Assembly: GCF_001677475.2 (NCBI RefSeq) | Contig: NZ_CP015229.1 | Length of the DNA stretch: 64,000 bases | Source of the DNA: Escherichia coli | GTDB taxonomy: Bacteria; Pseudomonadota; Gammaproteobacteria; Enterobacterales; Enterobacteriaceae | Strand: one strand, 5' to 3' | Shown: piece after piece, positions 2,516 to 63,069 of the stretch | How positions within the stretch are numbered: position 1 is the stretch's first letter | Layout: each line of letters opens with the position of its first letter | Program-made: the position numbers and the translations under genes | Notes under the pieces: model-generated | Seen by the model: the letters and a program-made list of their open reading frames with translations, nothing else | The model's database searches: none | What the model was told of the DNA's origin: nothing

Positions 2516-2523
2516 TGCTCCGG

Positions 2524-29825: not shown

Positions 29826-30752
29826 ATGAAAATAATACTTCTGTTTTTAGCAGCCCTGGCAAGTTTTACCGTACACGCACAGCCCCCCTCACAGACCGTT
29901 GAACAAACAGTCCGGCATATTTATAAGAACTATAAATCAGATGACACTGCCCCTTATTTTGGTGAAACCGGAGAGCGGGCGATAACTTCTGCGCGTATTC
30001 AACAGGCGCTTATCCTGAACGACAATCTTACGCTGCCGGGCAATATTGGCTGGCTGGATTATGATCCGGTTTGTGATTGTCAGGATTTTGGCGATCTGGT
30101 GTTAGAAAGCGTAGCGATAACCCAAACTGACGCCGATCATGCCGATGCCGTTGTGCGCTTTCGTATCTTTAAAGACGATAAAGAAAAGACCACGCAGACA
30201 CTGAAAATGGTGGCGGAAAATGGTCGTTGGGTCATTGACGATATTGTCAGCAATCATGGCAGCGTCTTACAAGCAGTTAATAGCGAGAATGAAAAAACGC
30301 TGGCCGCTTTAGCTTCGTTGCAAAAAGAACAGCCGGAAGCCTTTATTGCCGAACTCTTTGAACATATTGCCGATTATAGCTGGCCGTGGACGTGGGTGGT
30401 TTCCGACTCTTACCGCCAGGCGGTCAATGCCTTCTATAAAACCACCTTCAAGACGGCCAACAATCCCGATGAAGATATGCAAATAGAACGGCAATTTATT
30501 TACGACAATCCGATCTGTTTTGGCGAAGAGTCGCTATTTTCACGCGTTGATGAAATTCGAGTCCTGGAGAAAACCGCCGATTCCGCCCGTATTCATGTTC
30601 GTTTTACGCTGACCAATGGCAACAACGAAGAGCAAGAACTGGTTTTACAGCGGCGCGAAGGCAAGTGGGAAATCGCTGATTTTATCCGCCCGAACAGCGG
30701 CAGCCTACTTAAGCAGATTGAGGCAAAAACCGCCGCCAGATTAAAGCAATGA
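29826..30752 (+). CDS. yqhG: DUF3828 periplasmic protein (308 aa)
   Basis: Signal peptide MKIILLFLAALASFTVHA; K-12 position. Confidence 0.9.
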   Translation: MKIILLFLAALASFTVHAQPPSQTVEQTVRHIYKNYKSDDTAPYFGETGERAITSARIQQALILNDNLTLPGNIGWLDYDPVCDCQDFGDLVLESVAITQTDADHADAVVRFRIFKDDKEKTTQTLKMVAENGRWVIDDIVSNHGSVLQAVNSENEKTLAALASLQKEQPEAFIAELFEHIADYSWPWTWVVSDSYRQAVNAFYKTTFKTANNPDEDMQIERQFIYDNPICFGEESLFSRVDEIRVLEKTADSARIHVRFTLTNGNNEEQELVLQRREGKWEIADFIRPNSGSLLKQIEAKTAARLKQ

Positions 30753-30802
30753 GCTGAATTAAATAACAATTAGCCGGAACAATAAATAAAAGGGAACACT
30801 AT

Positions 30803-31060
30803 ATGAAAACGATTTTCACCGTGGGAGCTGTTGTTCTGGCAACCTACTTGCTCAGCGGCTGCGTCAATGAGCAAAAGGTCAATCCGCTGGCGAGCAATGT
30901 GCAAACATTAAATGCCAAAATCGCCCGGCTTGAGCAGGATATGAAAGCACTACGCCCACAAATCTATGCTGCCAAATCCGAAGCTAACAGAGCCAATACG
31001 CGTCTTGATGCACAGGACTATTTTGATTGCCTGCGCTGCTTGCGTATGTACGCAGAATGA
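30803..31060 (+). CDS. yqhH: Small outer membrane lipoprotein (85 aa)
   Basis: Lipobox LSGC after signal peptide; Lpp-like coiled coil. Confidence 0.88.
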
Positions 31061-31104
31061 TAAAAAATCCCCGGCAGCGTGTCAGTTGCCGGGGATATTT
31101 TTTA
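31061..31104. terminator. Bidirectional rho-independent terminator between convergent yqhH and ygiQ
   Basis: atccccggca...tgccggggat stem flanked by A-run and T-run. Confidence 0.7.
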
Positions 31105-33321
31105 ACGTCCAACCGCCGCTTTAGGGCGTTTCTTCGCACCAGCATTCACCGGACGAGATTGCGTAGACGACGCTTTTTTTGCCGTAGCAGGCGTCTGACG
31201 CTGGGTCGCCATCGGCGTATGTTTAGTCAACGCCGGACGGGTATTGCGATTCTGGCGACGAGCCTCACGCATCTCTTCAATGGTTGGCGCAGGCACTAAG
31301 CAATCGCGACGGCTGCCAATCAGATGCTTTTTGCCCATCGCTTCCAGCGCCTGACGGATTAACGGCCAGTTTGCCGGATCGTGGTAACGCAACAACGCTT
31401 TATGCAAACGACGCTGTTTGTCACCCTTCGGTACAAAGACGTCTTCACTCTTATAACCAATCTTCGCCAGCGGGTTTTTGCCGGTGTAATACATAGTGGT
31501 CGAGTTAGCCAGCGGCGACGGGTAGAAGTTCTGTACCTGGTCGAGGCGGAAGCGGTGCTTTTTCAGCCACAGCGCCAGATTCACCATATCTTCATCGCGC
31601 GTACCGGGGTGTGCCGAGATGAAATACGGGATCAAATACTGCTCTTTACCTGCCTGTTTCGAGTAGGTATCGAACAACTCTTTAAAGCGGTCATAGCTGC
31701 CCATGCCCGGCTTCATCATCTTCGACAACGGCCCTTCTTCGGTATGTTCCGGGGCAATCTTCAGATAACCGCCGACGTGATGGGTCGCCAGCTCTTTGAT
31801 ATAGCGCGGATCTTCCACGGCGATGTCATAACGTACGCCGGAAGCGATCAGGATCTTTTTAATGCCTTTCAGATCACGCGCACGGCGATAGAGGTTGATC
31901 GTCGGTTCGTGGTTAGTGTCCATATGCGGACAAATATCCGGGTAAACACACGACAAGCGGCGGCAGGTCTGTTCAGCGCGTGGCGATTTGCAGCGCAACA
32001 TATACATGTTGGCAGTTGGCCCACCGAGATCGGAAATTACGCCCGTAAAACCTGGAACGGTGTCGCGGATCGCTTCGATCTCATTGATGATCGAATCTTC
32101 CGAACGGCTCTGAATAATGCGCCCTTCATGCTCGGTAATAGAACAGAAAGAACAGCCACCAAAGCAGCCACGCATAATGTTGACCGAGAAACGGATCATT
32201 TCGTAAGCCGGAATACGAGCATTGCCATAGGCCGGATGCGGCACGCGCTTGTACGGCAGCGCAAAAACGCTGTCCATCTCTTCGGTAGAAAGCGGGATAG
32301 CAGGCGGGTTGATCCACACATAGCGGTCGCCATGTTTTTGCATCAATGCGCGGGCGCAGCCTGGGTTAGTTTCGTGGTGCAGAATACGCGAAGCATGGGC
32401 GTACAGCACTTTATCGCCCTTCACTTTCTCGAAAGAAGGCAGCAACACGTAGGTTTTTTCCCATGGTTTCGGGCGCGGCGGCTGCACAGTTACAGCTTTA
32501 GCTTCCTGCTTTTTCGGGGCCACCGGTTTGTTATCCGCGCACGGCAGATCTTCGCCATACGGATGCGGGATTGGGTCGATTTTCCCTGGGGTATCAAGAC
32601 GGGTGGAATCCACACCGCTCCAGCCAGGCAGCGCCTCTTTTACGATAATTGCGGTATTACGCACATCGCGGATTTCACTAATCGGCTCACCCATCGCCAG
32701 ACGATGCGCCACCTCCACCAACGGACGCTCACCGTTACCGAACATCAGCATGTCGGCTTTCGAATCCACCAGCACGGAACGGCGCACGGTATCGGACCAG
32801 TAATCATAATGCGCGGTACGGCGCAGACTAGCCTCAATACCGCCGAGGATCACCGGCACATCTTTCCACGCCTCTTTACAACGCTGGGTATAAACCAGTG
32901 TGGCGCGATCCGGTCGCTTACCCGCGACGTTATCCGGCGTGTAGGCATCGTCATGACGTAAACGGCGATCGGCAGTGTAACGGTTGATCATCGAATCCAT
33001 GTTGCCAGCAGTAACACCAAAAAACAGATTCGGTTTACCCAGACGCATAAAGTCGTCTTTGCTGCTCCAGTCCGGCTGGGCGATGATCCCGACGCGAAAG
33101 CCCTGCGCTTCCAGCATACGACCGCAAATCGCCATCCCAAAGCTTGGGTGATCGACATACGCGTCGCCAGTAACCAAAATGATGTCGCAGCTATCCCAGC
33201 CAAGTTGATCCATCTCTTCACGAGACATCGGCAAAAACGGTGCCGGTCCAAAACAGGCGGCCCAGTACTGCGGCCAGGAGAACAGGTCGCGATCCGGTTG
33301 GATCAGGGAGATAGAGCTCAT
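31102..33321 (-). CDS. ygiQ: UPF0313 radical SAM protein (739 aa)
   Basis: CxxxCxxC radical-SAM cysteine motif (CFGGCSFC); length matches K-12. Confidence 0.93.
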
Positions 33322-33431
33322 TTTGCTTCCAGAAATGATAAAAAAATAATCAAAGGCCGGGGATTATAAGCCGGAACGAAAGAGAAATCGAAAGGTATTC
33401 CATACTCGCCCTCCTCGGGCGAGTATGAAGA

Positions 33432-34844
33432 TTACGGTACCGGATTGACCAACAGTTGCCCAATCGAGCCACGGTCCGCCATTTCCAGCGTCTGACTGTT
33501 GAAGTAGAACGGGAAGTGCGCCCAGGAAGGCTGACCAAAATAAACAAGCAGCTCCACTTGTCCGTCAACCCAAACGGTATCTTTCCAGCCTCTGTCTTCC
33601 GGGAACGGCATCGCGCCATTCACGTTACGGATCTGGAACATCACGCCTTCAATATGGAACGCTTGCGGCTCGTCCGCGCGTACCGTCCAGCGTTCCCATG
33701 TTCCTTGCTGCGCGGTGACATCAATACGGTTGACGTCCCACAGCTGTCCATTAATACCCGGGTCATCACCCAGACTGATATCGCGACTGCGAATTGGCGA
33801 ACCAGCCATGATTTCAGTTGGCAGCAAGCGCATCGGAAGACTGTCTGTGACCAGCGGCAGAAGGCCGGTTGGGCGCAGCGTTAGCACCAGGGTAGAAACC
33901 AGAATGCTGGATGGCTCAAAGAAGCCACGAATACGATCAACAATGCTCGCCGCTTCGCCACAGGTGATCGACACTTCATCACCGTTGCTCATATCCACCA
34001 GAATCTCGCGGCGCTCGCCCGGTGCCAGCGAAAGTTGCTTCACCGATACAGGAGCAGGCAGGAATCCCTGATCGCCAGAAATCACATGTAACGGGCGACC
34101 ATCGCTCATCTGTAGTTGATAGCGACGAGAGTTCGACGCGTTCAGCAGTCGCAAGCGCACCCAGCCGCGCGAGACTTCAACGTACGGGCTTTGTACACCG
34201 TTAACCAGCAGCGTATCACCAACAAAGCCGCCGCTTCCCGGTTCGTTGTATTCTGGCGTACCAAAGTTATCCAGCCGTTTATCCTGGATAATGACCGGAA
34301 AATCATCCACACCATAATGGTTGGGGATAGGCAGCGACTTGCTGACTTCATCTTCCACCAGCCACATTCCGGCAAGGCCGTTATAGACCTGCTGAGCCGT
34401 GCGGTTGGGAGTATTGGCGTGATACCACAGAGTAGCTGCGTTCTGGCGAATAGGCAGTACGGGTGCCCAGTCAGCGTTTGGCGACATCATCCGTGCCGGA
34501 CCGCCCATCAGCGGGCCTGGTACCTGTAGCCCGGACACCGTCATTGAGACATTTTCTGTCAGGCGGTTGCTGTAAATAAGCTTAACATCGTCGCCTTTCC
34601 AGACGCGGATAGTCGGCCCCAGGTAACGACCATTGATTCCCCAAACCGACGCGCGTGTCCCTGGCGTAAATGACCAGTGCGCACGTTGTACAGTCATAAA
34701 CAGCGGTTGCCCACGGCGAGATTCAAGCAGCGGCGGAACGGGTAGCGGTTGCTGTTGCCCGGCTGCGCTGGCCTTCAGGGGAACAGCGCCTGCACAAAGT
34801 GCAATCCCCGATGCCTGAATGAACTGACGCCGACTGAGTGACAT
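33432..34844 (-). CDS. ftsP: Cell division protein FtsP (SufI), multicopper-oxidase fold, Tat substrate (470 aa)
   Basis: Tat signal MSLSRRQFIQASGIALCAGA. Confidence 0.95.
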   Translation of the reverse strand: MSLSRRQFIQASGIALCAGAVPLKASAAGQQQPLPVPPLLESRRGQPLFMTVQRAHWSFTPGTRASVWGINGRYLGPTIRVWKGDDVKLIYSNRLTENVSMTVSGLQVPGPLMGGPARMMSPNADWAPVLPIRQNAATLWYHANTPNRTAQQVYNGLAGMWLVEDEVSKSLPIPNHYGVDDFPVIIQDKRLDNFGTPEYNEPGSGGFVGDTLLVNGVQSPYVEVSRGWVRLRLLNASNSRRYQLQMSDGRPLHVISGDQGFLPAPVSVKQLSLAPGERREILVDMSNGDEVSITCGEAASIVDRIRGFFEPSSILVSTLVLTLRPTGLLPLVTDSLPMRLLPTEIMAGSPIRSRDISLGDDPGINGQLWDVNRIDVTAQQGTWERWTVRADEPQAFHIEGVMFQIRNVNGAMPFPEDRGWKDTVWVDGQVELLVYFGQPSWAHFPFYFNSQTLEMADRGSIGQLLVNPVP

Positions 34845-34918
34845 ATTTGCTCCATGTAAAACTGGCTAAAGTAATACCGTGCAGGAAAGTGTTCCCCGCA
34901 AAAATACAGATTGCCGAC

Positions 34919-35656
34919 TTAAACTTTTCCGGCGGCTTCGCGCTCTGCGACTTCTTTATCGAGCTCGGCGATTTTTTGTTCCATTATCGAACGACAATGG
35001 GCAGCCAGCTCACGAACCTGATCTTTGCCATACTGACTGACGTCAATTGGCGGCAGCATTTCGACAATCACCAGACCGTTGTGCAGTCGATTAAGATTAA
35101 TCTTATTCGAAGTTGTAGAGACACACACGGGAATAATCGGGACGCCCGCCGCAATTGCCGCGTGAAATGCCCCGGTCTTGAACGGTAGCAGGCCGCGACC
35201 ACGGCTGCGGGTACCTTCCGGGAACATCCAGATGGAAATACGGCGTTTTTTGAAGTGATTCACTACTTCCGCAATAGTGCCGTGAGCTTTAGTGCGATTA
35301 TTTCTGTCGATCAATAAGTTGCCGGTTAACCAGTACAACTGCCCGAAGAAGGGGATCCACAGCAAGCTCTTTTTACCTACCGTCACCGTCGGCGGTTGCA
35401 CAATGTTCGATGCTGTCACCATGTCATAGTTGTTCTGGTGGTTAGCGATATAGATAGCATTGCCGTAGCTTTCAGCGTCTGCAGGTTTGCGGCACTCAAC
35501 TTTCAGGCCGAACAGCGGCGCAAGACGGCCAAACATATGCCCAAAGGTGGCCACATGTTTCGGGTTACGCGGGCTGAAAAGGCAGTAAATGGAGCCGAAT
35601 ACACAGACTAAGATGCTGTAAATCACGGTAATAATAAGACGAAAGATATATAGCAT
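34919..35656 (-). CDS. plsC: 1-acyl-sn-glycerol-3-phosphate acyltransferase (245 aa)
   Basis: HxxxxD acyltransferase motif (NHQNNYD). Confidence 0.95.
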   Translation of the reverse strand: MLYIFRLIITVIYSILVCVFGSIYCLFSPRNPKHVATFGHMFGRLAPLFGLKVECRKPADAESYGNAIYIANHQNNYDMVTASNIVQPPTVTVGKKSLLWIPFFGQLYWLTGNLLIDRNNRTKAHGTIAEVVNHFKKRRISIWMFPEGTRSRGRGLLPFKTGAFHAAIAAGVPIIPVCVSTTSNKINLNRLHNGLVIVEMLPPIDVSQYGKDQVRELAAHCRSIMEQKIAELDKEVAEREAAGKV

Positions 35657-35888
35657 AACACCCTCTGAAGGTCTGAGAGACTGGCATTGTACGTCACCTG
35701 AAATCAGGTTAGGGCATTGTTAAAAGCCGCTCTCTGGAAAAGCGTATTGTTAATCGCAACGCATGAATAAACAACGGTTTCAAGGGAATTTTTATCGTTT
35801 CCGGGGGTTGAATACGCTGCCGGATGACGACTTAACGTTTCATCCGGCGTTCCTTGCAAGCGGGAGGAAACAGGCCCTCCCCGGCATA

Positions 35889-38147
35889 TTACTCTTCGCT
35901 ATCACCACTGCTGGCACGGCGAGGAGAGTCGATCTCAACACGATCGATACGCTGCAAACCGCGCATCAACGTACCGCGGCGTCCACGTTCGCCAGTGACT
36001 TTCTGTAGCTCTTCCGGACGCAGTTTAATTTTGCGTTTCCCAACATGAATGGTCAGCGTGCTTTGCGGCGGCAGAACGTACAGTTGCGCAAGACCATCTT
36101 CTCCACGCGCGGCTTCTGCCGATGGAATGTTGATAATCTTGTTGCCTTTGCCCTTCGACAGCTGCGGCAGATCGCTTACCGGGAACATCAACATACGGCC
36201 TGCCTGAGTGATTGCCAGCAGCATATCGGAAGCATCTTCAATCACCACCGGCGGCATAACATGGGCATTTTCCGGTAAGGTGATCAAAGCTTTACCTGCA
36301 CGGTTACGCGCCACCAGATCGTTAAAGGTGCAGACGAAACCGTAACCCGCATCGGAAGCCATCAGCAGTTTCTGATCGTCGCTTTCCATCAGCATATGGT
36401 CAACGGTCGCCCCAGGCGGCAACGTTAATTTGCCGGTGAGCGGTTCGCCCTGACCACGCGCCGACGGCAGCGTAATCGGGTCAATGGCATAGCTACGACC
36501 GGTGGAATCAACAAACACTACCGGTTGGTTGCTCTTACCTTTCACCGCCGCTTTGAAGCTATCACCCGCTTTATAATTCAGGCCCGGCGCGTCGATATCA
36601 TGGCCTTTAGCGCTGCGTACCCAGCCCATCTGCGACAGCACAATAGTGACAGGTTCAGACGGCAGCATGTCGTGCTCGCTCATCGCTTTCGCTTCTTCGC
36701 GTTCCTGCAACGGCGAACGACGATCGTCACCGTAGGCTTGCGCGTCTGCCTGCAGTTCTTTCTTCAGCAGGTTATTCATTTTACGCTCGGAAGCCAAAAT
36801 GCCCTGCAACTGGTCGCGCTCTTTTTCCAGCTCACTCTGCTCACCGCGAATCTTCATCTCTTCCAGTTTGGCAAGATGACGCAGTTTCAGTTCGAGGATC
36901 GCTTCCGCCTGGGTTTCCGTAAGGCCAAACCGCGACATCAGCGCCGGTTTCGGTTCATCTTCATTACGAATGATCTCAATCACTTCGTCGATATTGAGAA
37001 ACGCCACCAGCAAACCTTCGAGGATATGCAGGCGCTTGAGGACTTTCTCCAGACGATAGTTCAGTCGGCGGCGCACGGTATCGCGGCGGAACACCAGCCA
37101 TTCAGAGAGGATTTCCAGCAGGTTTTTCACCGCCGGACGACCATCCAGACCGATCATATTGAGATTAATGCGATAGCTCTTTTCCAGATCGGTGGTAGCG
37201 AAGAGGTGGTTCATCACCTGATCCATATCCACGCGGTTGGAACGCGGCACAATCACCAGACGGGTCGGGTTCTCGTGGTCAGATTCATCGCGCAGATCGT
37301 CAACCATCGGCAGCTTTTTGTTGCGCATTTGCGCAGCAATTTGCTCCAGTACGCGCGCACCTGAAACCTGATGCGGCAATGCGCTGATAACCACCGCACC
37401 ATCTTCTTTCTTCCACACCGCGCGCATACGCACTGAACCACGTCCGTTCTCGTAGATTTTACGGATCTCGGCGCGCGAAGTGATAATTTCCGCTTCAGTC
37501 GGATAATCCGGCCCCTGCACGATATCCAGCAGCTGATCGAGCGTGGTTTTCGGCTGGTCGATTAATGCGATTGCCGCCTGAGCCACTTCACGCAGGTTAT
37601 GCGGTGGAATATCGGTCGCCATGCCGACGGCAATACCGGTGGTACCGTTAAGCAAAATGTTTGGCAGACGGGCAGGTAGCATTTTCGGCTCCTGCAAAGT
37701 GCCGTCGAAGTTTGGTACCCAGTCAGCCGTCCCCTGCCCCAGCTCGCTCAATAGCAGCTCGGAATATTTCGACAACCGGGATTCGGTGTAACGCATTGCC
37801 GCGAACGATTTCGGATCGTCCGGCGCGCCCCAGTTCCCCTGACCATCAACCAGCGGATAACGGTAAGAGAACGGCTGCGCCATCAGGACCATCGCTTCAT
37901 AACAGGCGCTATCGCCGTGCGGATGGTATTTACCCAGTACGTCACCGACTGTACGGGCCGATTTTTTAAATTTGGCGCTGGCATTCAGGCCCAGCTCAGA
38001 CATCGCATACACAATGCGGCGCTGAACAGGTTTCAGACCATCACCAATAAACGGCAACGCACGGTCCATGATCACGTACATGGAGTAGTTTAAGTAGGCG
38101 TTTTCCGTAAATTCATGTAGCGCAAGGCGCTCTGCCATATCGCTCAT
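35889..38147 (-). CDS. parC: DNA topoisomerase IV subunit A (752 aa)
   Basis: GyrA/ParC N-terminal catalytic region with active-site AAMRYTE. Confidence 0.97.
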
Positions 38148-38284
38148 TAATTCTGATTCCTCAACTTATTCGCCAGCCTTCAAAGGGGCAATATTGCCGG
38201 AGATACTACATTATCTGCCGCGTCGAGTCACAGGAGATCAGCGTGAATAGCGCCGCCGGACGTGCTCCGACGGCGATAAAGGCA

Positions 38285-39892
38285 TCAATGTGCCTTGATA
38301 TACAACTCTTTGCTGTAGACATAATCCTGGGGATTATGCAGCGGAAAACCGCCAACGTAGGGTTTAAGCAGTTTGATTAACGGCTGATAGTAGATAGGAA
38401 TCAGCGGTGCCTGTTGGTTGATGATCACTTCTGCCTGCTGATACAACGCATTACGCTTTGTCGCATCAGTGATCTGCGTGGCCTGGTTTAGTAAGGCGTC
38501 ATACTGCGCATTTTTCCAGTGACCGACGTTTTCTTCACTATCGCTTTTGAGCGTGTTCAGGAAGCTGGAAGCATCATTGTACGTCGTATCCCACGACTGC
38601 CGAGACAGCATGAAATCACCGGCTCGTCGGGCATCAAGATAGGTTTTCCACTCCATTGTACGCAGCGTCACCTGTGCACCCAGCCATTTTTTCCATTCGG
38701 AAGACAACGCTATCGCGGTCTTTTCATGCAGATCGTACTTGTTGTAGAACAGCTCAAAGCGTAGCGGATGAGAGGCGTCGTATCCCGCCTGTTTCAGCAA
38801 GGCTTTTGCCATCGCGACGCGCTCACTCATTGGCTTTTGCAGTTCATCGAACGTCGTCGTGCTAAAGCCTTTTACCTCTGGCGGCGTCAGCGTGGTTGCG
38901 GGCGTTCTCAACCCCAGTACCTTTTGCGCAATAAGCTGTCGATCAACCGTAAGATATAGCGCCCGACGCACTCGCACATCGTTAAATGGCGGTTTCTCAA
39001 GGTTAAAGTTGTAATATTCGCTGTTCAGACGCGGGATAATTCGTAGCTCGCCAGGCAGTGATTTTTCAATGGCAGGAATTTGCTGCGCCGGAACCCAGGT
39101 GAGATCGACCTCTCCCGCGCGATAGCGGTTATAGCCGGTGACCGAATTATCCAGCGCCAGATACTCAACTTGTTGCAATACTGTATGTTGCGCATCGCGG
39201 TACTTTGGATTTTTGCGTGCAGTAATCTTTTCGTTAACTACCCACTGTTCAAGCACAAAGGCACCGTTGTAAACCATGTTCTCTGGCTTACTCCAGCTAT
39301 CGCCATGTTTAGCGATGACATGATGAGGAACCGGGAACAGCGTCGGCCAGGCGAGCATCGTCGTGAACCAAGGAACCGGCTGCTCAAGCGTAACTTCAAG
39401 AGTACGATCATCCGTCGCTTTGACACCCAGCGATGTAACATCTGCTTTACCCGCAACAATAGCCGCGGCATTGTTAATGTGCGCCTGTGCCAGATAGCCA
39501 GCAAAAGGGCTTGCCGTTTTCGGGTCAACCGCGCGCTGCCAGCCGAGGACAAAATCCTCTGCCGTCAAAGGCTGACCGTCTGACCACTGCAAACCGCTAC
39601 GCAGATGGAAAATATAGCGCTTGCCGCCGTCCAGTATCTCCCAGCGTTCAGCCTGAGCGGGCTGCACCTGGCCTTCACCGTCCATCCATACCAGACCTTC
39701 AAACAGATCCAGCACAATCTGCGCGGCAGTATTCTCCTCCACCTTTTGCGGGTCGAGCGTACCTGGGTCGCTATGATTGTTGTAACGAAAGACTTGTTGC
39801 GGGGCGAGCGGTGTGTTGGCGGGAACGTCAGCAGCGTAGAGAGGTGCCGCACTTACCAGGCTGACCAGCCATAATAAATTTCGCGTATACAT
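38285..39892 (-). CDS. ygiS: Periplasmic oligopeptide-type ABC substrate-binding protein (535 aa)
   Basis: Family 5 SBP with signal peptide; start at internal Met (MYTRNLLW). Confidence 0.88.
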   Translation of the reverse strand: MYTRNLLWLVSLVSAAPLYAADVPANTPLAPQQVFRYNNHSDPGTLDPQKVEENTAAQIVLDLFEGLVWMDGEGQVQPAQAERWEILDGGKRYIFHLRSGLQWSDGQPLTAEDFVLGWQRAVDPKTASPFAGYLAQAHINNAAAIVAGKADVTSLGVKATDDRTLEVTLEQPVPWFTTMLAWPTLFPVPHHVIAKHGDSWSKPENMVYNGAFVLEQWVVNEKITARKNPKYRDAQHTVLQQVEYLALDNSVTGYNRYRAGEVDLTWVPAQQIPAIEKSLPGELRIIPRLNSEYYNFNLEKPPFNDVRVRRALYLTVDRQLIAQKVLGLRTPATTLTPPEVKGFSTTTFDELQKPMSERVAMAKALLKQAGYDASHPLRFELFYNKYDLHEKTAIALSSEWKKWLGAQVTLRTMEWKTYLDARRAGDFMLSRQSWDTTYNDASSFLNTLKSDSEENVGHWKNAQYDALLNQATQITDATKRNALYQQAEVIINQQAPLIPIYYQPLIKLLKPYVGGFPLHNPQDYVYSKELYIKAH

Positions 39893-40000
39893 GGTATTCC
39901 TTACCGGAGAAATTATAAGCCCAATAACAATACGCCTGTGGCATTGTTCGCTCAAACTTATCGCGAGTGATTTGGCTCACACTCCGGTAAAGATTCCCCA

Positions 40001-40483
40001 TCACGCTAACGGTACATAAACATCCGTTTCCAGTCGCTGCTCTGTCACCCCTTCGGCAAGATTGGTGTAGTGAAACAGAATCGGTGCTTTACGCATTTTC
40101 TCGCCGCTTGCAGGCAGCCAGTGGCGAATAATGCCCCATATCGTGTGTGAAATATCGTCCAGCTCGCCAACATGGCGGGTAACAGCATAACGCCCACCGG
40201 TAAGTTCGCCATTACTCACGCCATAACGATTATCGGGGATCGGTTCGCTAACGCTGCCGCAGATATCAAAGCGAAACGCTTCCGGTGCGGTGGTGGCAGG
40301 GTCGTCCCAGGCGACGCCAAAAGTCTGGCTTTGGTTAACAGGAGAAAGCCCCGTCTCTTTACGCCACATGATAAATTTCGCCACGCTGTAGTTGAGCAAC
40401 TCAGGGCTACAGCGGTGCGGCAACATCGCCACAGGGATTGATGGGAAATCGATAATATTTACATCCAGTGTCAGGTTTGTCAT
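40001..40483 (-). CDS. ygiV: GyrI-like small-molecule-binding domain protein (160 aa)
   Basis: SbmC/GyrI-like fold; position upstream of ygiW. Confidence 0.85.
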   Translation of the reverse strand: MTNLTLDVNIIDFPSIPVAMLPHRCSPELLNYSVAKFIMWRKETGLSPVNQSQTFGVAWDDPATTAPEAFRFDICGSVSEPIPDNRYGVSNGELTGGRYAVTRHVGELDDISHTIWGIIRHWLPASGEKMRKAPILFHYTNLAEGVTEQRLETDVYVPLA

Positions 40484-40535
40484 TTTGCCTCCCTGCGAAA
40501 TTATTCCCGGGAACGCGTCCCGGGAGCGGTAACAA

Positions 40536-40928
40536 TTACGGATTTACTTTGCGGATCTGTTTGACGTCAATTTCAACAGAATTCCAGTCTTTATCGACTT
40601 CCCCCTGAATCTCAACCGTATCTTTCGGCGTCACCGTCACGCCGTTCCAGCGTTTGTGGTCGATATCAACATTGATAGTACCGCTGGCATCTTTGAACAC
40701 GTAGAGATCGTCAGAGATGCGTTCAACGATATTGCCGCGCAGGGTTACCCAGGTGTCGTCACGCAGGGATTTTGCGCTTTCTACAGTCGTTACGCTGCCA
40801 TTCGGCCCCTGGAATCCTCCGGCCTGACTTTGCGTTGCCGATGGGCCAGAAAAACCGCCCTGCTCTGCTGCCATCACCGGTGCGCTGCACAGGGCCATTA
40901 CTGCGATTACTGCTGCGAATTTTTTCAT
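40536..40928 (-). CDS. ygiW: BOF (OB-fold) periplasmic stress protein (130 aa)
   Basis: Signal peptide MKKFAAVIAVMALCSAPVMA. Confidence 0.9.
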   Translation of the reverse strand: MKKFAAVIAVMALCSAPVMAAEQGGFSGPSATQSQAGGFQGPNGSVTTVESAKSLRDDTWVTLRGNIVERISDDLYVFKDASGTINVDIDHKRWNGVTVTPKDTVEIQGEVDKDWNSVEIDVKQIRKVNP

Positions 40929-41079
40929 GTTTATTACTCCCTTTAATGTCTGTTTCCGAGCATTTAACAAGATAGTCCTTAACAACTTCTTAAGGGAAAA
41001 AAATAAAATTTAATGCTGTACAGAGCGCGTTACAACACGGTTTACTGGCAGCAAATACGGTTATCGCAGGGATGAAAAA

Positions 41080-41739
41080 ATGCGAATTTTACTGATAGAA
41101 GATGACATGCTGATTGGCGACGGCATCAAAACGGGCCTTAGTAAAATGGGTTTTAGCGTCGACTGGTTTACACAAGGTCGTCAGGGAAAAGAGGCGCTAT
41201 ACAGCGCACCTTATGATGCGGTGATCCTGGATTTAACCTTACCAGGCATGGATGGTCGCGATATTTTGCGCGAATGGCGAGAAAAAGGTCAGCGTGAGCC
41301 GGTATTGATCCTGACCGCGCGCGATGCGCTGGCGGAACGTGTAGAAGGGCTGCGTCTGGGAGCTGACGATTATCTGTGTAAACCTTTTGCGTTGATAGAA
41401 GTCGCCGCCAGGCTAGAAGCTCTGATGCGCCGAACCAACGGCCAGGCCAGCAACGAGCTGCGCCACGGCAACGTCATGCTCGACCCCGGCAAACGTATCG
41501 CCACACTGGCTGGCGAACCCTTAACGCTGAAACCAAAAGAATTTGCCCTGCTGGAATTACTGATGCGTAACGCTGGTCGGGTACTGCCGCGCAAACTGAT
41601 TGAAGAGAAACTGTATACCTGGGACGAAGAGGTCACCAGTAATGCCGTTGAAGTGCATGTGCATCATCTGCGACGCAAACTCGGCAGTGATTTTATTCGT
41701 ACCGTTCATGGTATTGGCTACACATTAGGTGAGAAATGA
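41080..41739 (+). CDS. qseB: Two-component response regulator, OmpR family (219 aa)
   Basis: [15 protein letters not shown] receiver domain plus winged helix. Confidence 0.96.
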
Positions 41740-43085
41740 AATTTACCCAACGTCTTAGTCTGCGAGTCAGGCTGACGCTAATCTTTTTAATTCTGGCCTC
41801 GGTGACCTGGCTGCTTTCCAGCTTTGTCGCCTGGAAACAAACAACGGATAACGTCGATGAGTTGTTCGACACCCAACTGATGCTGTTTGCCAAACGGTTA
41901 AGTACGCTCGATCTCAACGAAATCAACGCGGCAGATCGCATGGCACAGACGCCAAATAAATTAAAACACGGTCATGTTGATGACGATGCGCTGACCTTTG
42001 CCATCTTTACCCACGACGGCAGAATGGTCCTTAACGATGGCGATAACGGAGAAGATATTCCCTATAGCTATCAGCGGGAAGGTTTTGCTGACGGGCAACT
42101 GGTCGGTGAAGACGATCCCTGGCGTTTTGTCTGGATGACCTCACCTGATGGCAAATATCGCATCGTTGTTGGTCAGGAATGGGAATACCGCGAAGACATG
42201 GCGCTGGCGATTGTTGCCGGGCAATTGATCCCGTGGCTGGTCGCACTGCCGATTATGTTAATCATCATGATGGTACTACTGGGTCGTGAACTCGCGCCGC
42301 TGAACAAACTGGCGCTGGCACTACGTATGCGTGACCCTGACTCGGAAAAACCACTAAACGCGACGGGCGTACCTAGCGAAGTGCGTCCACTGGTTGAGTC
42401 GTTGAATCAACTGTTCGCCCGCACACATGCGATGATGGTTCGTGAACGACGCTTTACCTCCGACGCAGCTCACGAACTACGTAGCCCGTTAACGGCGCTG
42501 AAAGTGCAAACCGAAGTTGCGCAGCTCTCTGACGATGATCCGCAGGCGCGGAAAAAAGCGCTGCTTCAATTACATTCCGGAATCGATCGCGCTACTCGTC
42601 TGGTTGATCAACTGCTCACGCTATCGCGGCTGGACTCACTGGATAACCTTCAGGACGTCGCGGAGATCCCGCTTGAAGATCTCCTGCAATCGTCGGTGAT
42701 GGATATTTACCACACGGCGCAGCAGGCGAAAATTGACGTGCGACTGACACTCAATGTCCAGGGCATCAAACGCACCGGACAACCGCTATTGCTAAGTTTG
42801 TTGGTGCGAAACCTTCTGGATAACGCCGTGCGTTACAGTCCACAGGGTAGCGTGGTAGACGTCACGCTGAATGCCGATAATTTCATCGTGAGGGATAACG
42901 GCCCCGGTGTGACGCCAGAGGCACTGGCGCGAATTGGCGAACGCTTCTATCGCCCACCCGGGCAAACCGCTACCGGCAGTGGACTTGGGCTATCGATTGT
43001 CCAGCGAATCGCCAAATTGCATGGCATGAATGTTGAGTTTGGGAATGCGGAACAAGGTGGATTTGAGGCGAAGGTAAGCTGGTAA
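41736..43085 (+). CDS. qseC: Sensor histidine kinase (449 aa)
   Basis: H-box AAHELRSPL; 4-nt overlap with qseB. Confidence 0.96.
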
Positions 43086-43194
43086 GGGTAAGACTTTTGC
43101 TAAATTCGCAAAAGACTTTGCACATTTTGCTAATTTCACCGTACCGCTCTGTGACGTACTATAGTCGACAAACGTCTCACCTTGAGGTTAAAAA

Positions 43195-43776
43195 ATGAGC
43201 AACATCCTGATTATCAACGGCGCGAAAAAATTCGCCCACTCCAATGGTCAACTGAACGACACCCTGACCGAAGTCGCGGATGGCACACTGCGCGACCTCG
43301 GGCATGATGTCCGCATCGTTCGCGCCGACAGCGACTACGATGTCAAAGCGGAAGTACAAAACTTTCTCTGGGCTGATGTGGTGATCTGGCAGATGCCAGG
43401 CTGGTGGATGGGCGCGCCGTGGACAGTGAAAAAATACATTGATGATGTATTCACCGAAGGTCACGGGACTCTGTATGCCAGCGATGGTCGTACCCGCAAA
43501 GATCCGTCGAAAAAATACGGCTCCGGCGGCCTGGTACAGGGCAAAAAATATATGCTTTCTCTGACCTGGAACGCACCAATGGAAGCCTTCACCGAAAAAG
43601 ATCAGTTCTTCCACGGCGTTGGCGTTGACGGTGTGTATCTGCCGTTCCATAAAGCAAACCAATTCCTCGGTATGGAACCGCTGCCGACATTTATCGCTAA
43701 TGACGTGATAAAAATGCCTGATGTTCCCCGCTATACTGAAGAATATCGCAAGCATCTTGTGGAAATTTTTGGTTAA
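43195..43776 (+). CDS. mdaB: NADPH:quinone oxidoreductase, flavodoxin-like (193 aa)
   Basis: MSNILIINGAKKFAHSNGQLNDTL. Confidence 0.95.
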   Translation: MSNILIINGAKKFAHSNGQLNDTLTEVADGTLRDLGHDVRIVRADSDYDVKAEVQNFLWADVVIWQMPGWWMGAPWTVKKYIDDVFTEGHGTLYASDGRTRKDPSKKYGSGGLVQGKKYMLSLTWNAPMEAFTEKDQFFHGVGVDGVYLPFHKANQFLGMEPLPTFIANDVIKMPDVPRYTEEYRKHLVEIFG

Positions 43777-43806
43777 CTAGAGCTCAGGCTTTAGAAGGAG
43801 TTAACC

Positions 43807-44121
43807 ATGCTTACCGTAATCGCAGAAATCCGTACTCGTCCTGGTCAACATCACCGTCAGGCGGTATTGGATCAGTTTGCTAAAATCGTTCCAACCGTAC
43901 TGAAGGAAGAAGGTTGCCACGGCTATGCGCCGATGGTGGATTGCGCTGCTGGCGTGAGTTTCCAGTCTATGGCGCCGGACTCTATCGTGATGATTGAGCA
44001 GTGGGAAAGCATCGCGCATCTTGAAGCGCACTTGCAGACCCCGCACATGAAAGCGTACAGCGAGGCCGTAAAAGGCGATGTGCTGGAGATGAATATCCGC
44101 ATCCTGCAACCGGGGATTTAA
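43807..44121 (+). CDS. ygiN: Quinol monooxygenase, ABM domain (104 aa)
   Basis: MLTVIAEIRTRPGQHHRQAVLDQF. Confidence 0.95.
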   Translation: MLTVIAEIRTRPGQHHRQAVLDQFAKIVPTVLKEEGCHGYAPMVDCAAGVSFQSMAPDSIVMIEQWESIAHLEAHLQTPHMKAYSEAVKGDVLEMNIRILQPGI

Positions 44122-44130
44122 CATTCCTGA

Positions 44131-44158
44131 AAAGAGGCCGGTGTTGCTACCGGCCTCA
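44131..44158. terminator. Terminator hairpin at the left island junction (between ygiN and the island regulator gene)
   Basis: gaggccggt-gttgct-accggcctc; T-run on the minus strand. Confidence 0.6.
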
Positions 44159-44165
44159 GGTCAGA

Positions 44166-45053
44166 TTAGCCATTCTTTCTTCCCGTTTTCAAACCCCGAT
44201 GGAAATCGTTAATTCGCTTAATGGTTTTAACCGCACGCTGCGGCATCGCGGAAGCCACCGACCAGACAATCATTTCCAGGCACAACAATACCGTACCATG
44301 TAGTGGCGTTTTCCCCTTTTCATCCCCGCGCGGAACATGAATCACGATACTGGCGTCTTTGCTAAAACGTGAATCCAGCGCGTTTGTCAGCAAAATAACA
44401 GGGATCCCCAGCCGCCTCGCCTCACGAAGCGTTGTCAGCCCTTCCCGGTGCGCAGATTTTTGCGCCATCATGATCAGAACATCGCCACGTTGAAGCGCGA
44501 TCAGTTGCTCGGCAAGGCCAATACCCGTACGGTTTAGTGCCGTGGCAGGCAAACCTATGCGGTTGAATAGTCGTGCGGTATAGTCCGCCAGAATACCCGA
44601 AGCGCCAATGCCAAAAATTGCGACTTGCCGTGCCTGCACCAACAACGCTACCGCTTGCGCAAGCGCGTGGCGGTTTTCAGGCTCTGACAGGACATTACAA
44701 GTATACAAATGCCCTTCAAGAACAAAGTCGATTGCGGTGTTAACATCGCTCGTCAAGTTACTCACCGTCGTAGACATCTTTTCGCTGGAACTAAGGGCTG
44801 GACCAAGCCACTGTTCCAGAGTGCGTCTCAGATCACGCAGCCCGGCAAACCCCAGAGCCTGTATAGCCCTGATAACTGTGGCATCGGAAGTGTTCAACGT
44901 GGCCGCAATTTCCATCGCCGTTTGCTCGAGTACCACTTCACGATGCTCATTAATGTAGCTTGCGACAGCTCTTAACCCAGGCGTTAACTGACTCGCGCGA
45001 GTGCGAAAACGCTCACCATAAATATCAACCCGCGTTTTGTCTTTCTGGATCAT
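44166..45053 (-). CDS. RpiR/MurR-family transcriptional regulator, HTH plus SIS domain (295 aa); candidate regulator of the adjacent iron-uptake genes
   Basis: N-terminal HTH (TAMEIAATLNTSDATVIRAIQALGFAGLRDL) and C-terminal sugar-isomerase-type domain; start overlaps the upstream SBP gene stop (4 nt). Confidence 0.8.
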   Translation of the reverse strand: MIQKDKTRVDIYGERFRTRASQLTPGLRAVASYINEHREVVLEQTAMEIAATLNTSDATVIRAIQALGFAGLRDLRRTLEQWLGPALSSSEKMSTTVSNLTSDVNTAIDFVLEGHLYTCNVLSEPENRHALAQAVALLVQARQVAIFGIGASGILADYTARLFNRIGLPATALNRTGIGLAEQLIALQRGDVLIMMAQKSAHREGLTTLREARRLGIPVILLTNALDSRFSKDASIVIHVPRGDEKGKTPLHGTVLLCLEMIVWSVASAMPQRAVKTIKRINDFHRGLKTGRKNG

Positions 45054-45997
45054 TTAGCCTCCGGTAGAGGTCGTCCCGCAATTTGTGATTGTATCTGCGC
45101 AGCCATCAGCCCCAGAGATGCAAAGGAGTTAGAAATCGCCTCTTCACGAGAAATCAGCACATAGCGCCCGGAACGACAGGCCGTCAGAAACTGACACCAT
45201 CCCGGCATGACTTTTTCCATTGCTGCCAGCTCATCCTGAGGTTTACCACCGGTGTCACCGCGCCAGGTTGCAAAAACAAAATCGGCATCCAGTTCAGGTA
45301 AACGCTCTGCGCTCACATCCATTCGCCCACCTTCAGGAATGCTCTCAATCAGCGGCGGAAAGCGAAAACCAGCATCGCGTAATACCCGCCCCAGCGAATG
45401 ATAGCTATGCATCACATTAATTTTTCCCTGATTTGCCTGAATCACCGATACCGTTATTTTTTGGCTGTCCAGCGTCGCCTTCAGCGCATTGATTTGTGCC
45501 TGATAGCGGCGTTCAAGTATCGCCAGCTGCGACTGCGTTCCTGTAAGTTCTGCCAGCTTGCGGTAGATTTCTGGCGCGCCTCCTTTGAGATGATCAATGC
45601 TCACCGTGGGCGCAATTTTTTCCAGTTGTTCAATGGGCGTATTACGGGTCGGTTCTGTGATGATCAGGTCAGGCTTTGCCGCCACAATCGCTTCAATATC
45701 AATATCAGCGGTGCCAATAAAAGCGATCGATGAATTATCAAAGTCGACACCTGTCAATAACGCGCCTGATCGAATGAAATGGCTACCGTCAGGCCGGGTT
45801 CGCCCGTGGCTGGCGACAGGAGGTACACCGAGCTCAATCAGAGGAATAGTGATATCAAGATCGTGTAAAGAGACAATTCTCTTTGGATGAGCAGGAACAG
45901 TGACTTTGCGCCCTAAATCATCAGTAAAGACCTGAACAGGTTCTGTCGCGCGGGCAAAGAATGACAACAGTATCAGCAGAGAAAAAAATAAACGCAT
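45050..45997 (-). CDS. Periplasmic iron-siderophore ABC substrate-binding protein, FecB/FhuD-like
   Basis: Signal peptide MRLFFSLLILLSFFARA; cluster-8 SBP architecture. Start at Met22 of track ORF to avoid overlap with the upstream permease. Confidence 0.8.
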   Translation of the reverse strand: MRLFFSLLILLSFFARATEPVQVFTDDLGRKVTVPAHPKRIVSLHDLDITIPLIELGVPPVASHGRTRPDGSHFIRSGALLTGVDFDNSSIAFIGTADIDIEAIVAAKPDLIITEPTRNTPIEQLEKIAPTVSIDHLKGGAPEIYRKLAELTGTQSQLAILERRYQAQINALKATLDSQKITVSVIQANQGKINVMHSYHSLGRVLRDAGFRFPPLIESIPEGGRMDVSAERLPELDADFVFATWRGDTGGKPQDELAAMEKVMPGWCQFLTACRSGRYVLISREEAISNSFASLGLMAAQIQSQIAGRPLPEAK

Positions 45998-46007
45998 ATA
46001 ACTCCCA

Positions 46008-47057
46008 TTAAAAACTGTTCCTGCGCTGCCAGAGCAGTAGCAAAAAGAATGGTCCACCAATCAATGAAATAATGATTCCGGCAGGCAGTTGCAAAGGCAA
46101 AAAAGCCAAACGACCAATGCTATCCGCCAGGATGACTAACAACGCCCCCGATACGGCGCTCCCCAGCAGTAATGTCGTCTGCCCGCCACGTAGAATAAAA
46201 CGTGATATATGGGGTGCTATCAATCCGACAAAACCGATGTTACCAACACACGAAACGCAGACGGCTGTCAGGATTATTGGTGCGGCGACACGTAACAACG
46301 CCAGACGAGAACTATTCACCCCTAACCCGGTTGCAACCTGATGACCAAGCAGAGCGATATCCGCCGTCCTGGCGGTGAACAGCAATAAAAGAGCGGCTGG
46401 CAACATCCAACAGGCTGAAATACCGACTAACATCCAGTTAGCTGCATGCAGGCTTCCCGATAACCACATCAATGCAGTTTGTACATCTCGAACATCTGCA
46501 GTGGTCATAAATACACCGATACCGGCGGCGAAAAACCAGGAAACACCAATACCAATCAGAACAAATCGCGGGCGGGAAATATCGCGTGCACAAAAAATCA
46601 CGATTAAAGCCACCAACAAGCCACCAGCAAGACCAGCCACTGGACGCCAGAACATTCCCAGCATTGGAAACTGGAAGATCAGCCACAGCACCGCCACGCT
46701 ACATCCTTCTTTGACGCCGATTAAACCAGGATCGGCAAGGCCGTTACGCGCAATGGATTGCATCGCGGCCCCCGCCATACCTAACATGGCTCCGCATAGC
46801 AATGCCATGATGACTCTCGGCAAGCGAATATCCTGCACAATATAACGTGCGTCTGTGCTTACGTTTTCTGGAGCAAACAACGCTCGTCCTACTTCCGATG
46901 CCGGGACAGAAAAAGAACCATGCATCAGACCGAATATCAGTATTCCAACCGCAAACAGAAACAGCCCACCAAGCAACACCAGATTTTTAGGGCGTACCAG
47001 TGTCGAAAACTTACCAACACGTAGTGGACGTAGCCCGACGTTCATTATCCGACTCAT
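46008..47057 (-). CDS. Iron-siderophore ABC permease, FecCD family (349 aa)
   Basis: Polytopic membrane protein with FecCD-type glycine-rich helices. Confidence 0.85.
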   Translation of the reverse strand: MSRIMNVGLRPLRVGKFSTLVRPKNLVLLGGLFLFAVGILIFGLMHGSFSVPASEVGRALFAPENVSTDARYIVQDIRLPRVIMALLCGAMLGMAGAAMQSIARNGLADPGLIGVKEGCSVAVLWLIFQFPMLGMFWRPVAGLAGGLLVALIVIFCARDISRPRFVLIGIGVSWFFAAGIGVFMTTADVRDVQTALMWLSGSLHAANWMLVGISACWMLPAALLLLFTARTADIALLGHQVATGLGVNSSRLALLRVAAPIILTAVCVSCVGNIGFVGLIAPHISRFILRGGQTTLLLGSAVSGALLVILADSIGRLAFLPLQLPAGIIISLIGGPFFLLLLWQRRNSF

Positions 47058-48037
47058 TTGAACATCCTCGTCGCCATAATGACAAAAACAGGCGCACCAA
47101 CTAACGCCGTCATGACACCGGTCGCTAACTCATGGGGCGTGAAAAGCGTCCGAGCAATAATATCTGCCAGTAATAACAAAAGCGCGCCGACACAAGCTGA
47201 AAGAGGGAGCAGAACGCGCAGATCCGCTGATACCAGACGCCTGACAATCTGCGGTACTAGCAGGCCGACAAAACCAATGGGGCCAGCAATCGATACGGCT
47301 GCGCCACAGAGCAACGCGATCGCAAGCAGAGTGAATGTTCGCGTGCGGAGTACCGAGACGCCCAGCCCCTGCGCCATGCGATCACCCAGTGCCAACATGT
47401 TAAGAGAGGGCGCAAGGTAAATGGCTAACACAACCCCCCCCAGAGAAAACCAGGCGGACGTACCCAGCGTCGCCCAATCCTGCCCCGCTAAATCACCTGC
47501 TAGCCATGTCCGCATCGCCAGCAGTGTTTGTTCGTCAAGAATCAGGATTGCAGCCGTTATTGAGGACACGAACGCCGATAGCGCCACGCCGCATAAAGTA
47601 ACTTTCATTGGCGTTAACCCTGAACGCCCTGCGGAGGAAAGCAGCAATATCAACAGGAACAATAACGCGCCCCCCGTAGATGCCAGCAGTGGGCGTCCAA
47701 CCGGAAAGGCCAGTCCAAGCGCACTGGCGGCAACGACAGCAAGAGCGGCTCCGGCATTTAAGCCTAAAATATGTGGCTCCCCCAATGGGTTACGAATGAC
47801 AGCCTGCAACAAAGCACCAGCAACTCCAAGAGAAGCACCGGTAAGCAATGCTGCCGCTAAACGCGGCAAACGGAGTCTTACAATTACGTTGTGATCGAAG
47901 TTTTGCGGTTCAAAATGAAGAAATGCCTGCAACACCGTTTGTGGTGCAATAAATCGGGCACCAATCCCTGGATATACCACGCATCCCACCAGCAGTAAGG
48001 CGAGGAAAATTACAGTAACCAGCCCTGTGCGCATCAT
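47054..48037 (-). CDS. Iron-siderophore ABC permease, FecCD family (327 aa)
   Basis: Paralogous to the adjacent permease; 4-nt overlaps on both sides. Confidence 0.85.
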   Translation of the reverse strand: MMRTGLVTVIFLALLLVGCVVYPGIGARFIAPQTVLQAFLHFEPQNFDHNVIVRLRLPRLAAALLTGASLGVAGALLQAVIRNPLGEPHILGLNAGAALAVVAASALGLAFPVGRPLLASTGGALLFLLILLLSSAGRSGLTPMKVTLCGVALSAFVSSITAAILILDEQTLLAMRTWLAGDLAGQDWATLGTSAWFSLGGVVLAIYLAPSLNMLALGDRMAQGLGVSVLRTRTFTLLAIALLCGAAVSIAGPIGFVGLLVPQIVRRLVSADLRVLLPLSACVGALLLLLADIIARTLFTPHELATGVMTALVGAPVFVIMATRMFK

Positions 48038-48843
48038 ACTTTTTCTACACCACGAAACGGCATGAAGAACGGCTTTCCCGTCAGAGGATTTATTGATGCG
48101 TGAACATCAACGTCAAAGACAGCTTTTACCAGCTCAGGCGTGCAATGCTCCCCCTCATTCAACACACGCACCACTTTCCCCTGGCGTAAAAATATCAACG
48201 TATCGCCATAATTGACGGCAAAATTCAGATCATGCAACACCACGACGACTGTACGCCCGTGATGACGCGTTAAGTCATGTAATAACTCAAGAATTTCAAC
48301 CTGATAACGTAAATCAAGCCAGGTTGTGGGTTCATCCAGCAGGATATAAGGCGTCTTTTGCGCCAACACCATCGCAATCCAGCAACGCTGGCGCTGCCCA
48401 CCAGAGAGTTTTTCAACCGGTAAATGTGCAAACTCCTGCGTACCGGTTAATTTCAGGGCCTCTTCTACCGCCTGCTCGTCGGCGTCGCTCCATTGACGTA
48501 TGAAATTTTGCCAGGGAAAACGCCCACGCGACACCAGTTCATAAACGGTTAAGCCCTCCGGCAATAATGGCGACTGCGGCAAGATCCCAAGTCTACGGGA
48601 TAACGCTTTCGTTGGTTGCTCGTGAATCGCTTTACCATCCAGCAATATAGAGCCGCCCATAGGCTGCAAGATACGTGCAATGGTGCTGAGCAACGTCGAC
48701 TTTCCACAGCCGTTTGCCCCAACCAGAACGGTCATTTTTTCTGTGGGAACGGAGAAAGAAACACCATCAACAATGATCTTCTTGTGATACCCGGCAGAAA
48801 CATTGTCGAGGATCAGCCCCTGCCCTTTTGCGTTATGTGCCAC
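48034..48843 (-). CDS. Iron-siderophore ABC ATPase, FecE/FepC-like (269 aa)
   Basis: Walker A GANGCGKST, signature LSGGQRQR, Walker B ILLDEP. Confidence 0.9.
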   Translation of the reverse strand: MAHNAKGQGLILDNVSAGYHKKIIVDGVSFSVPTEKMTVLVGANGCGKSTLLSTIARILQPMGGSILLDGKAIHEQPTKALSRRLGILPQSPLLPEGLTVYELVSRGRFPWQNFIRQWSDADEQAVEEALKLTGTQEFAHLPVEKLSGGQRQRCWIAMVLAQKTPYILLDEPTTWLDLRYQVEILELLHDLTRHHGRTVVVVLHDLNFAVNYGDTLIFLRQGKVVRVLNEGEHCTPELVKAVFDVDVHASINPLTGKPFFMPFRGVEKV

Positions 48844-49216
48844 GTGTACGCCAACTTAATCAAAGACAAACAAAAATAAAACTCATTCTCTTTTGAGAGT
48901 TTGACGCCACAAAATGTAGTAGTCAAGAAGTTAAAATCCATACAAAAACAAGGTAAATAACAGGTGAAATATTTTTAAAGATAAAAATAAAATCATTAAA
49001 TATTAATAAATTACCATCAATTAAATTGCATTAACCTCTCATAAAAACACATGTAGCAATTTTTTGTTATTTCTCATTTACTACTACATTACCGCATGGT
49101 TGAATGATTCTCAATTACATATCCGATGGTGAAATAACAAACGGATAGTGCTTAGTGAGCAACAAGAAACAATTTTCACTCACGACAATCCGTGAGTTTT
49201 TGGGATAACAGACTAA
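48844..49216. promoter_or_regulatory. AT-rich divergent promoter region of the iron-uptake island with candidate Fur boxes
   Basis: 373-bp AT-rich spacer; ttgaatgattctcaattac and aaaatcattaaatattaat resemble the Fur-box consensus. Confidence 0.45.
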
Positions 49217-51358: not shown

Positions 51359-51400
51359 TCAAAAAAGCCCGGTATACACTTGTATACCGGGCTATGTTTT
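51359..51400. terminator. Bidirectional rho-independent terminator at the right island junction (receptor gene / parE)
   Basis: agcccggtataca...tgtataccgggct perfect inverted repeat flanked by A-run and T-run. Confidence 0.7.
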
Positions 51401-51421
51401 ATTCTTCTGGCGGGAGGATTA

Positions 51422-53317
<1,896 letters not shown>

Positions 53318-63057: not shown

Positions 63058-63069
63058 AGCAACACAAAA

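Follow-up and report, generated by a model that had tools for sequence, protein, structure and literature searches.

The ygiV-ygiS junction of a non-K-12 Escherichia coli as a probably ancestral site that lacks the mqsR-mqsA toxin-antitoxin module

Organization of the ygiS-ygiV locus

We analysed the region around the ygiS-ygiV junction in a 64-kb stretch of Escherichia coli DNA, referred to here as the window. Positions, strands and features are collected in Table 1. The product of ygiS matches the Pfam family SBP_bac_5 (E = 2e-84) and that of ygiV the GyrI-like family (E = 3e-36), and the two genes differ from their K-12 counterparts at 13 and 16 positions, respectively. Reading frames place ygiW beyond ygiV on the minus strand, followed on the plus strand by qseB, qseC, mdaB and ygiN.

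A preliminary description of this DNA had reported 108 bp of non-coding sequence between ygiS and ygiV, and the reading frames reproduce this length exactly; E. coli ABU 83972 (a B2 strain) and CFSAN061770 are likewise annotated with 108 bp between the two genes. In the RefSeq annotation of K-12 MG1655 the genes follow one another as plsC, parC, ygiS, mqsA, mqsR, ygiV, ygiW, qseB, qseC, in agreement with the order ygiS, mqsA, mqsR, ygiV that the description had given for K-12.

Table 1 Features of the ygiS-ygiV locus and of the first 3628 bp of the window (window coordinates).
Feature	Position	Strand	Remarks
LptF-like permease	851-1921		within 1-3628
YtfJ-family protein	1952-2515		within 1-3628
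274-aa protein	2524-3348		within 1-3628; no NCBIfam match
parC	35889-38147	minus	reading frame
ygiS	38285-39892 (ATG 39892-39890)	minus	535 aa; periplasmic substrate-binding protein; intact; N-terminus MYTRNLL
ygiV-ygiS intergenic spacer	39893-40000 (108 bp)	minus	unoccupied counterpart of the K-12 mqsRA locus, with the putative ygiS control region
Inverted repeat, proximal arm (17 nt)	39893-39909		overlaps the ygiS ribosome-binding site
AAGGAA, ygiS ribosome-binding site	39897-39902	minus	last base 4 nt upstream of ATG; invariant across species
TATAAT, candidate -10 hexamer of ygiS	39912-39917	minus	perfect match by direct reading; invariant across species
Candidate CRP site AGTGATTTGGCTCACA	39966-39981		TGTGAGCCAAATCACT on the ygiS strand (39981-39966); TGTGA-N6-TCAC match
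Inverted repeat, distal arm (17 nt)	39982-39998		contains the K-12 insertion point 39993/39994
TTCCC	39994-39998		5 bp absent from K-12, which has the 927-bp mqsRA cassette there instead
ygiV	40001-40483 (stop codon 40001-40003)	minus	160 aa; GyrI-like domain; intact

The mqsR-mqsA module is absent from the window

We searched the whole 64-kb window with the K-12 MqsR and MqsA proteins by tblastn. The best MqsR match had E = 1.5, and the best MqsA match (E = 0.56) fell within ygiN, outside the spacer. A sensitive blastn search of the window with the 927-bp K-12 cassette DNA returned matches at chance level only (E >= 0.6), and two small open reading frames overlapping the spacer had no Pfam match; as a control, K-12 MqsR and MqsA matched PF15723 and PF15731 strongly in the same database (120 bits for MqsR). 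Direct reading of the 108-bp spacer showed no MqsA operator palindrome of the form ACCT-N2-4-AGGT.

The toxin-antitoxin module is thus absent from the 64-kb window, as had been claimed for the ygiS-ygiV interval, where tblastn, blastn and Pfam searches were all negative. The same searches, including the Pfam scan of the spacer reading frames, revealed no homolog in an alternative frame of the 108 bp and no residual mqsRA fragment.

Breakpoints and anatomy of the K-12 cassette

Alignment of the junction with K-12 by blastn yielded exact breakpoints. The alignment is gapless up to window position 39993, which corresponds to K-12 position 3167819, and resumes at window position 39999, which corresponds to K-12 position 3168747; between these points the window has the 5 bp TTCCC and K-12 has 927 bp (NC_000913 3167820-3168746). 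The flanks are 98-99% identical to those of K-12.

The only genes in the 927-bp K-12 cassette are mqsR and mqsA. In the direction of transcription, it opens with some 200 bp that precede mqsR. Directly after ygiV, and already inside the cassette, there is a terminator-like hairpin (TGGCGCTACTAATGCGCCA) with a T-rich tail behind it, and two copies of ACCTAAAAGGTTA, also within the cassette, are the MqsA operator palindromes of the mqsRA promoter; mqsR and mqsA follow, and the 3' end is formed by 31 bp with the mqsA terminator (AAAAGCGGGGGCAACTCGCTTTTT). The GC content of the cassette is 41.1%, as against 52-55% for ygiS, ygiV, ygiW and parC.

The preliminary description had proposed a search for short direct repeats at the junction, and none flanks the K-12 cassette. 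There is no target-site duplication at its ends (positions 4820/4821 and 5747/5748 of the K-12 locus), no terminal inverted repeat, and no transposase or integrase gene. We therefore rejected a transposon, an insertion sequence or an integrative element as the vehicle of the cassette, and with them transposition and site-specific integration as its mode of entry.

Distribution of occupied and empty junctions in E. coli

We surveyed the locus in 5426 complete RefSeq E. coli genomes. In this biased sample, counted without regard to phylogeny, the empty junction is contiguous in 3112 genomes (57%), and the cassette with both K-12 junctions occurs in 2283 (42%). An empty junction with an adjacent intact ygiS, as in the window, is found in 1754 genomes, and an empty junction with ygiS replaced by a 236-bp filler in 1354; these two haplotypes and the cassette haplotype together cover 5391 of the 5426 genomes. 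The empty junction GGTAAAGA-TTCCC-CATCACGC of the window is letter-identical in CFSAN061770 and CP026085, two unrelated E. coli backgrounds.

Cassette copies numbered 2299, all chromosomal and all at least 99% identical. The 2283 copies counted above as having both junctions are those covering at least 80% of a probe that spans both K-12 junctions, and in an evenly spaced sample of cassette genomes the whole probe was spanned in 25 of 26 rows. One E. coli genome (NZ_CP025913.1, 417569-419433) carries an IS1 within the cassette, with mqsR split.

The census also bears on whether the empty spacer could be an artefact of assembly or sequence in which the region was collapsed. The probability of such an artefact is close to nil: the same junction is found in thousands of independent complete genomes, and the parC differences between the window and K-12 are spaced in multiples of three, as in natural synonymous divergence.

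The 236-bp filler replaces ygiS (the equivalent of window positions 38327-39870) in about a quarter of the E. coli genomes surveyed. In CP026085, where it occupies locus positions 3765-4000, it has 60% GC, and it is present as a single copy per genome; it contains no open reading frame, matches no Rfam family up to E = 1, and resembles none of the other loci compared. The CP026085 record is labelled DH5alpha, yet it measures 4.83 Mb and is not K-12-like at the ygiS locus. Outside E. coli, MOD1-EC7003 (locus positions 5553-5922) and E1V33 (locus positions 3713-4140) carry different, independent internal deletions of ygiS. The gene seems dispensable, and seems to have been lost repeatedly across the genus.

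These observations qualify the earlier characterization of the junction as a recurrent variable site. The site is variable, but recurrence is not supported for mqsRA, the copies of which are near-identical and apparently share the same junctions; the repeated events at this site strike ygiS, not mqsRA.

The empty junction in other Escherichia species

A pattern-based scan with one genome per species recovered a small set of five non-coli Escherichia loci (MOD1-EC7003, the divergent "E. coli" SCPM-O-B-8794, E1V33, E. whittamii and E. albertii), those of E. fergusonii and Salmonella not being among the loci recovered. The five loci are 89-95% identical to the window, and none of them (0/5) has mqsRA between ygiV and ygiS. 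Three of the outgroups, E. albertii and E. whittamii among them, have an intact ygiS, and their spacer, roughly 110 bp long, contains the equivalent junction with few bases different; read as GGGAA (the reverse complement of TTCCC), the junction pentamer is present in other Escherichia species as such or as the close variants GGGA and GGAAT. Across seven Escherichia sequences, E. albertii and E. whittamii included, mean column identity of the spacer is 95%, and the DNA around the spacer in these two species is 89-91% identical to the window.

To call the module "missing", as the preliminary description did, implies a loss, and this implication does not stand: the empty junction is the commonest state in E. 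coli and has its equivalent in three non-coli Escherichia lineages. That mqsRA was simply deleted from a K-12-like chromosome, whether excised or lost through replication slippage between short repeats, is suggested only by a comparison centred on K-12, in which the module is there and not here. We consider this deletion very improbable, because TTCCC is found at neither end of the K-12 cassette and so cannot be produced by deleting K-12 sequence, because it matches the state in other Escherichia species, and because there are neither direct repeats flanking the cassette nor leftover cassette fragments. The frequency of the empty junction in E. coli, its retention in non-coli Escherichia, and the inability of a K-12 deletion to generate TTCCC all place the window in the ancestral state. 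Judged from these sequence comparisons, the empty site is the ancestral allele, kept by the window, and the allele of K-12 is derived, with an insertion in place of 5 bp.

Origin of the cassette in the K-12 lineage

Our preferred reading, to which we assign a probability of roughly 0.85, is that the spacer is intact and ancestral and holds the ygiS control region, that the lineage of the window most probably never held mqsRA at this position, and that K-12 is derived. According to this reading, a self-contained, low-GC cassette of 927 bp would have replaced TTCCC, 12 bp beyond the candidate CRP site described below, in the K-12 lineage. The cassette would have brought, in order, the hairpin that follows ygiV, the promoter of mqsRA together with the two MqsA palindromes, mqsR, mqsA and the mqsA terminator.

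We infer that the cassette was acquired once, since its copies are near-identical and its junctions uniform; this single acquisition would have been horizontal. As the cassette bears no marks of a transposon or an integrase, it probably entered by illegitimate recombination, or by homologous recombination with a donor allele. The alleles of its flanks differ among carriers, which points to later spread of the cassette by homologous recombination, and it would now be segregating in E. coli as a presence/absence polymorphism.

MqsR-family toxins with 57-68% identity are encoded by plasmids from Rahnella, Rouxiella, Pectobacterium, Yersinia, Burkholderia and others, and their presence on plasmids of many Proteobacteria indicates that the family is mobile. 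In the plasmid collection outside E. coli, the closest MqsR was 68% identical, and phage records contained no MqsR. Two near-identical "plasmid" matches were discarded as candidate donors: both are E. coli records, and one of them, at 4.9 Mb, is chromosome-sized.

The flanks of the junction are not uniformly related to K-12. Divergence from K-12 is 0.9% on the ygiS side of the junction and jumps to 2.1% beyond it, on the ygiV side; identity is 99.1% over ygiS/parC, reaching 99.5% in the last 394 bp, and 97.9% over ygiV-qseC, and eleven mismatches with K-12 are clustered in about 110 bp inside ygiV (40130-40238). This jump makes the locus a recombination mosaic and suggests that recombination had a boundary close to the mqsRA site or at it. 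Alleles at the 3' end of ygiV are shuffled among the haplotypes as well: K-12 has the allele of the empty-site genome CP026085, and the window has that of CFSAN061770.

The change-point at the junction, the clustered mismatches and the shuffled flank alleles are what would be expected if an ancestor of the window had possessed mqsRA and empty-site DNA had later overwritten the cassette, scarlessly, by homologous recombination. We regard such a secondary loss as unlikely. It is not needed to account for the mosaic, since entry of the cassette into a K-12-like ygiS background after the split gives the same pattern, and within a single 64-kb window its outcome is indistinguishable from a never-occupied site. 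Furthermore, loss of a type II toxin-antitoxin module is expected to be counter-selected through post-segregational toxicity, which weighs against allelic replacement.

The spacer as a putative ygiS control region

At 95% mean column identity, the ygiV-ygiS spacer is better conserved between Escherichia species than its neighbouring genes (89-91%). The CRP-type pattern TGTGA-N6-TCAC has one match in the 64-kb window, with 0.52 expected by chance, and this match lies in the spacer; on the ygiS strand it agrees with TGTGA-N6-TCACA at 9 of 10 consensus positions. Among the Escherichia species compared, the predicted site hardly varies, the one substitution being that in E. whittamii. A consensus scan of the spacer for a canonical sigma-70 promoter found no -35/-10 pair above threshold, only the perfect -10 hexamer, and the lack of a good -35 fits an activator-dependent ygiS promoter. 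Productive CRP sites are centred at -41.5, -61.5, -72.5 and so on. If transcription starts about 7 nt after TATAAT, the candidate site is centred at about -68.5, a distance that is not canonical for class I. No structured RNA was recognized in the spacer by Rfam at E up to 1.

The exact 16-mer found in the window is listed as a CRP ChIP-seq site for ygiS in ETEC H10407 (PMC4287617), and ygiS is among the CRP genomic SELEX targets in K-12 (PMC3105977); the window thus resembles the CRP-bound ygiS promoter of these studies in having the identical 16-mer upstream of ygiS. In K-12 this site is 12 bp from the foreign cassette, whereas in the window it is 19 bp from the ygiV stop codon. Both a terminator following mqsA and a putative promoter of ygiS have been annotated in K-12 (PMC5120126), and insertion of the cassette 12 bp beyond an intact CRP site agrees with that annotation. 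On these grounds, the spacer is best read as a putative CRP-dependent ygiS promoter.

A single inverted repeat was detected between 39850 and 40050, and it brackets this promoter: its two 17-nt arms are 82% complementary and separated by 72 nt. RNA of the strand running from ygiV to ygiS is predicted to fold at -41.9 kcal/mol (z = -4.1), with none of 200 shuffled sequences as stable. The predicted long-range stem takes in the ygiS ribosome-binding site and start codon, and pairing of 39918-39925 with 39974-39981 extends it to an interrupted stem of about 24 bp. Across species, 96.5% of the cells compared retain the pairing, with zero compensatory changes, which speaks neither for nor against a function; the -10 hexamer and the ribosome-binding site in any case constrain the 3' arm of the stem.

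This fold, the pairing kept across species and the higher conservation of the spacer raise the speculative possibility that the inverted repeat is functional, which we rate as unlikely. In transcripts reading through from ygiV, the modelled stem would bury the ygiS ribosome-binding site and AUG, and YgiS would be made only from CRP-dependent transcripts. If this were true, the transcripts of ygiS itself would start inside the loop and carry no distal arm, and the K-12 cassette would have landed in the distal arm and cut the 17-nt repeat to 13 nt. In K-12, two terminators would then have taken over from insulation at the RNA level, and such an arrangement could help to account for the disagreement among published reports on ygiS expression in mqsRA mutants.

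Lineage of the window and further differences from K-12

The preliminary description had assigned the window to a non-K-12 lineage. This assignment is borne out by an overall identity to K-12 of about 98% and by at least six further insertion/deletion differences; the parC differences noted above give the divergence a natural look. Over window positions 30000-50000, none of the 5426 complete E. coli genomes exceeded 98.7% identity, the best matches being swine ETEC, and the lineage is thus scarce in that collection or missing from it.

Between qseC and mdaB, ygiZ is absent, and the window has 5 bases (43086-43090) at the place of 592 bp in K-12 (3171834-3172425); this is a second small indel between K-12 and the window, 3 kb from the mqsRA site, and CFSAN061770 has the same 110-bp qseC-mdaB spacing. 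A 7.3-kb siderophore-uptake island that is absent from K-12 lies between ygiN and parE (44122-51425). Its predicted products are an RpiR-family regulator, an iron-siderophore binding protein, two FecCD/FhuB-type permeases, a FecE-like ATPase and a TonB-dependent siderophore receptor, and it presumably resembles the E. coli 'fit' iron-uptake locus.

Towards the ends of the window, the fimbrial operon ygiL-yqiG-yqiH-yqiI is absent and about 70 bp are found instead (62989-63060); the K-12 ygiL-yqiGHI region (3185071-3191707) spans 6.6 kb and includes an IS2. Positions 1-3628, with the three genes given in Table 1, have no counterpart at this place in K-12, which has yghO and an IS5.

Relation to known systems and implications

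The likeness of the locus to mqsRA of K-12 (ygiU-ygiT; b3022-b3021) is one of chromosomal address, between ygiV and ygiS; the window differs in having no MqsR_toxin or MqsA_antitoxin frame, no ACCT-N-AGGT operator and no cassette terminator. The type II toxin-antitoxin modules on the E. coli chromosome have been characterized as cassettes that were transferred horizontally and lie among core genes (Ramisetty and Santhosh, FEMS Microbiol Lett 2016, as cited in PMC5120126 and PMC6918082). The mqsRA cassette is like these in its presence/absence polymorphism, its precise junctions among core genes, its atypical GC content and the lack of a transposase. According to the same work as cited in PMC5120126, the minimal transferred unit is made up of a promoter/operator plus two genes, with no terminator; the 927-bp unit of K-12 differs in that it includes the terminator of mqsA and, at the ygiV end, a second hairpin that is terminator-like.

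MqsRA has been found absent from the AIEC strain NRG857c (PMC7232551). Both accessory chromosomal toxin-antitoxin cassettes and the absence of mqsRA from individual strains are thus phenomena already known in kind, and the present locus adds one data point to a known pattern, in which the reference state of E. coli is not that of K-12.

A link between MqsR and ygiS mRNA has been reported and was later contested (PMC6918082); with no mqsRA in the window, such a link would not apply in this strain. More broadly, about 57% of the complete E. coli genomes carry no mqsRA at this site, and the physiological roles proposed for MqsR and MqsA in K-12 can therefore not be general for the species. Among these roles is control of ygiS together with bile tolerance, of GhoT/GhoS, of rpoS and of csgD. 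For studies of MqsR and MqsA, the exact exchange of TTCCC for 927 bp provides a clean natural empty-site control.
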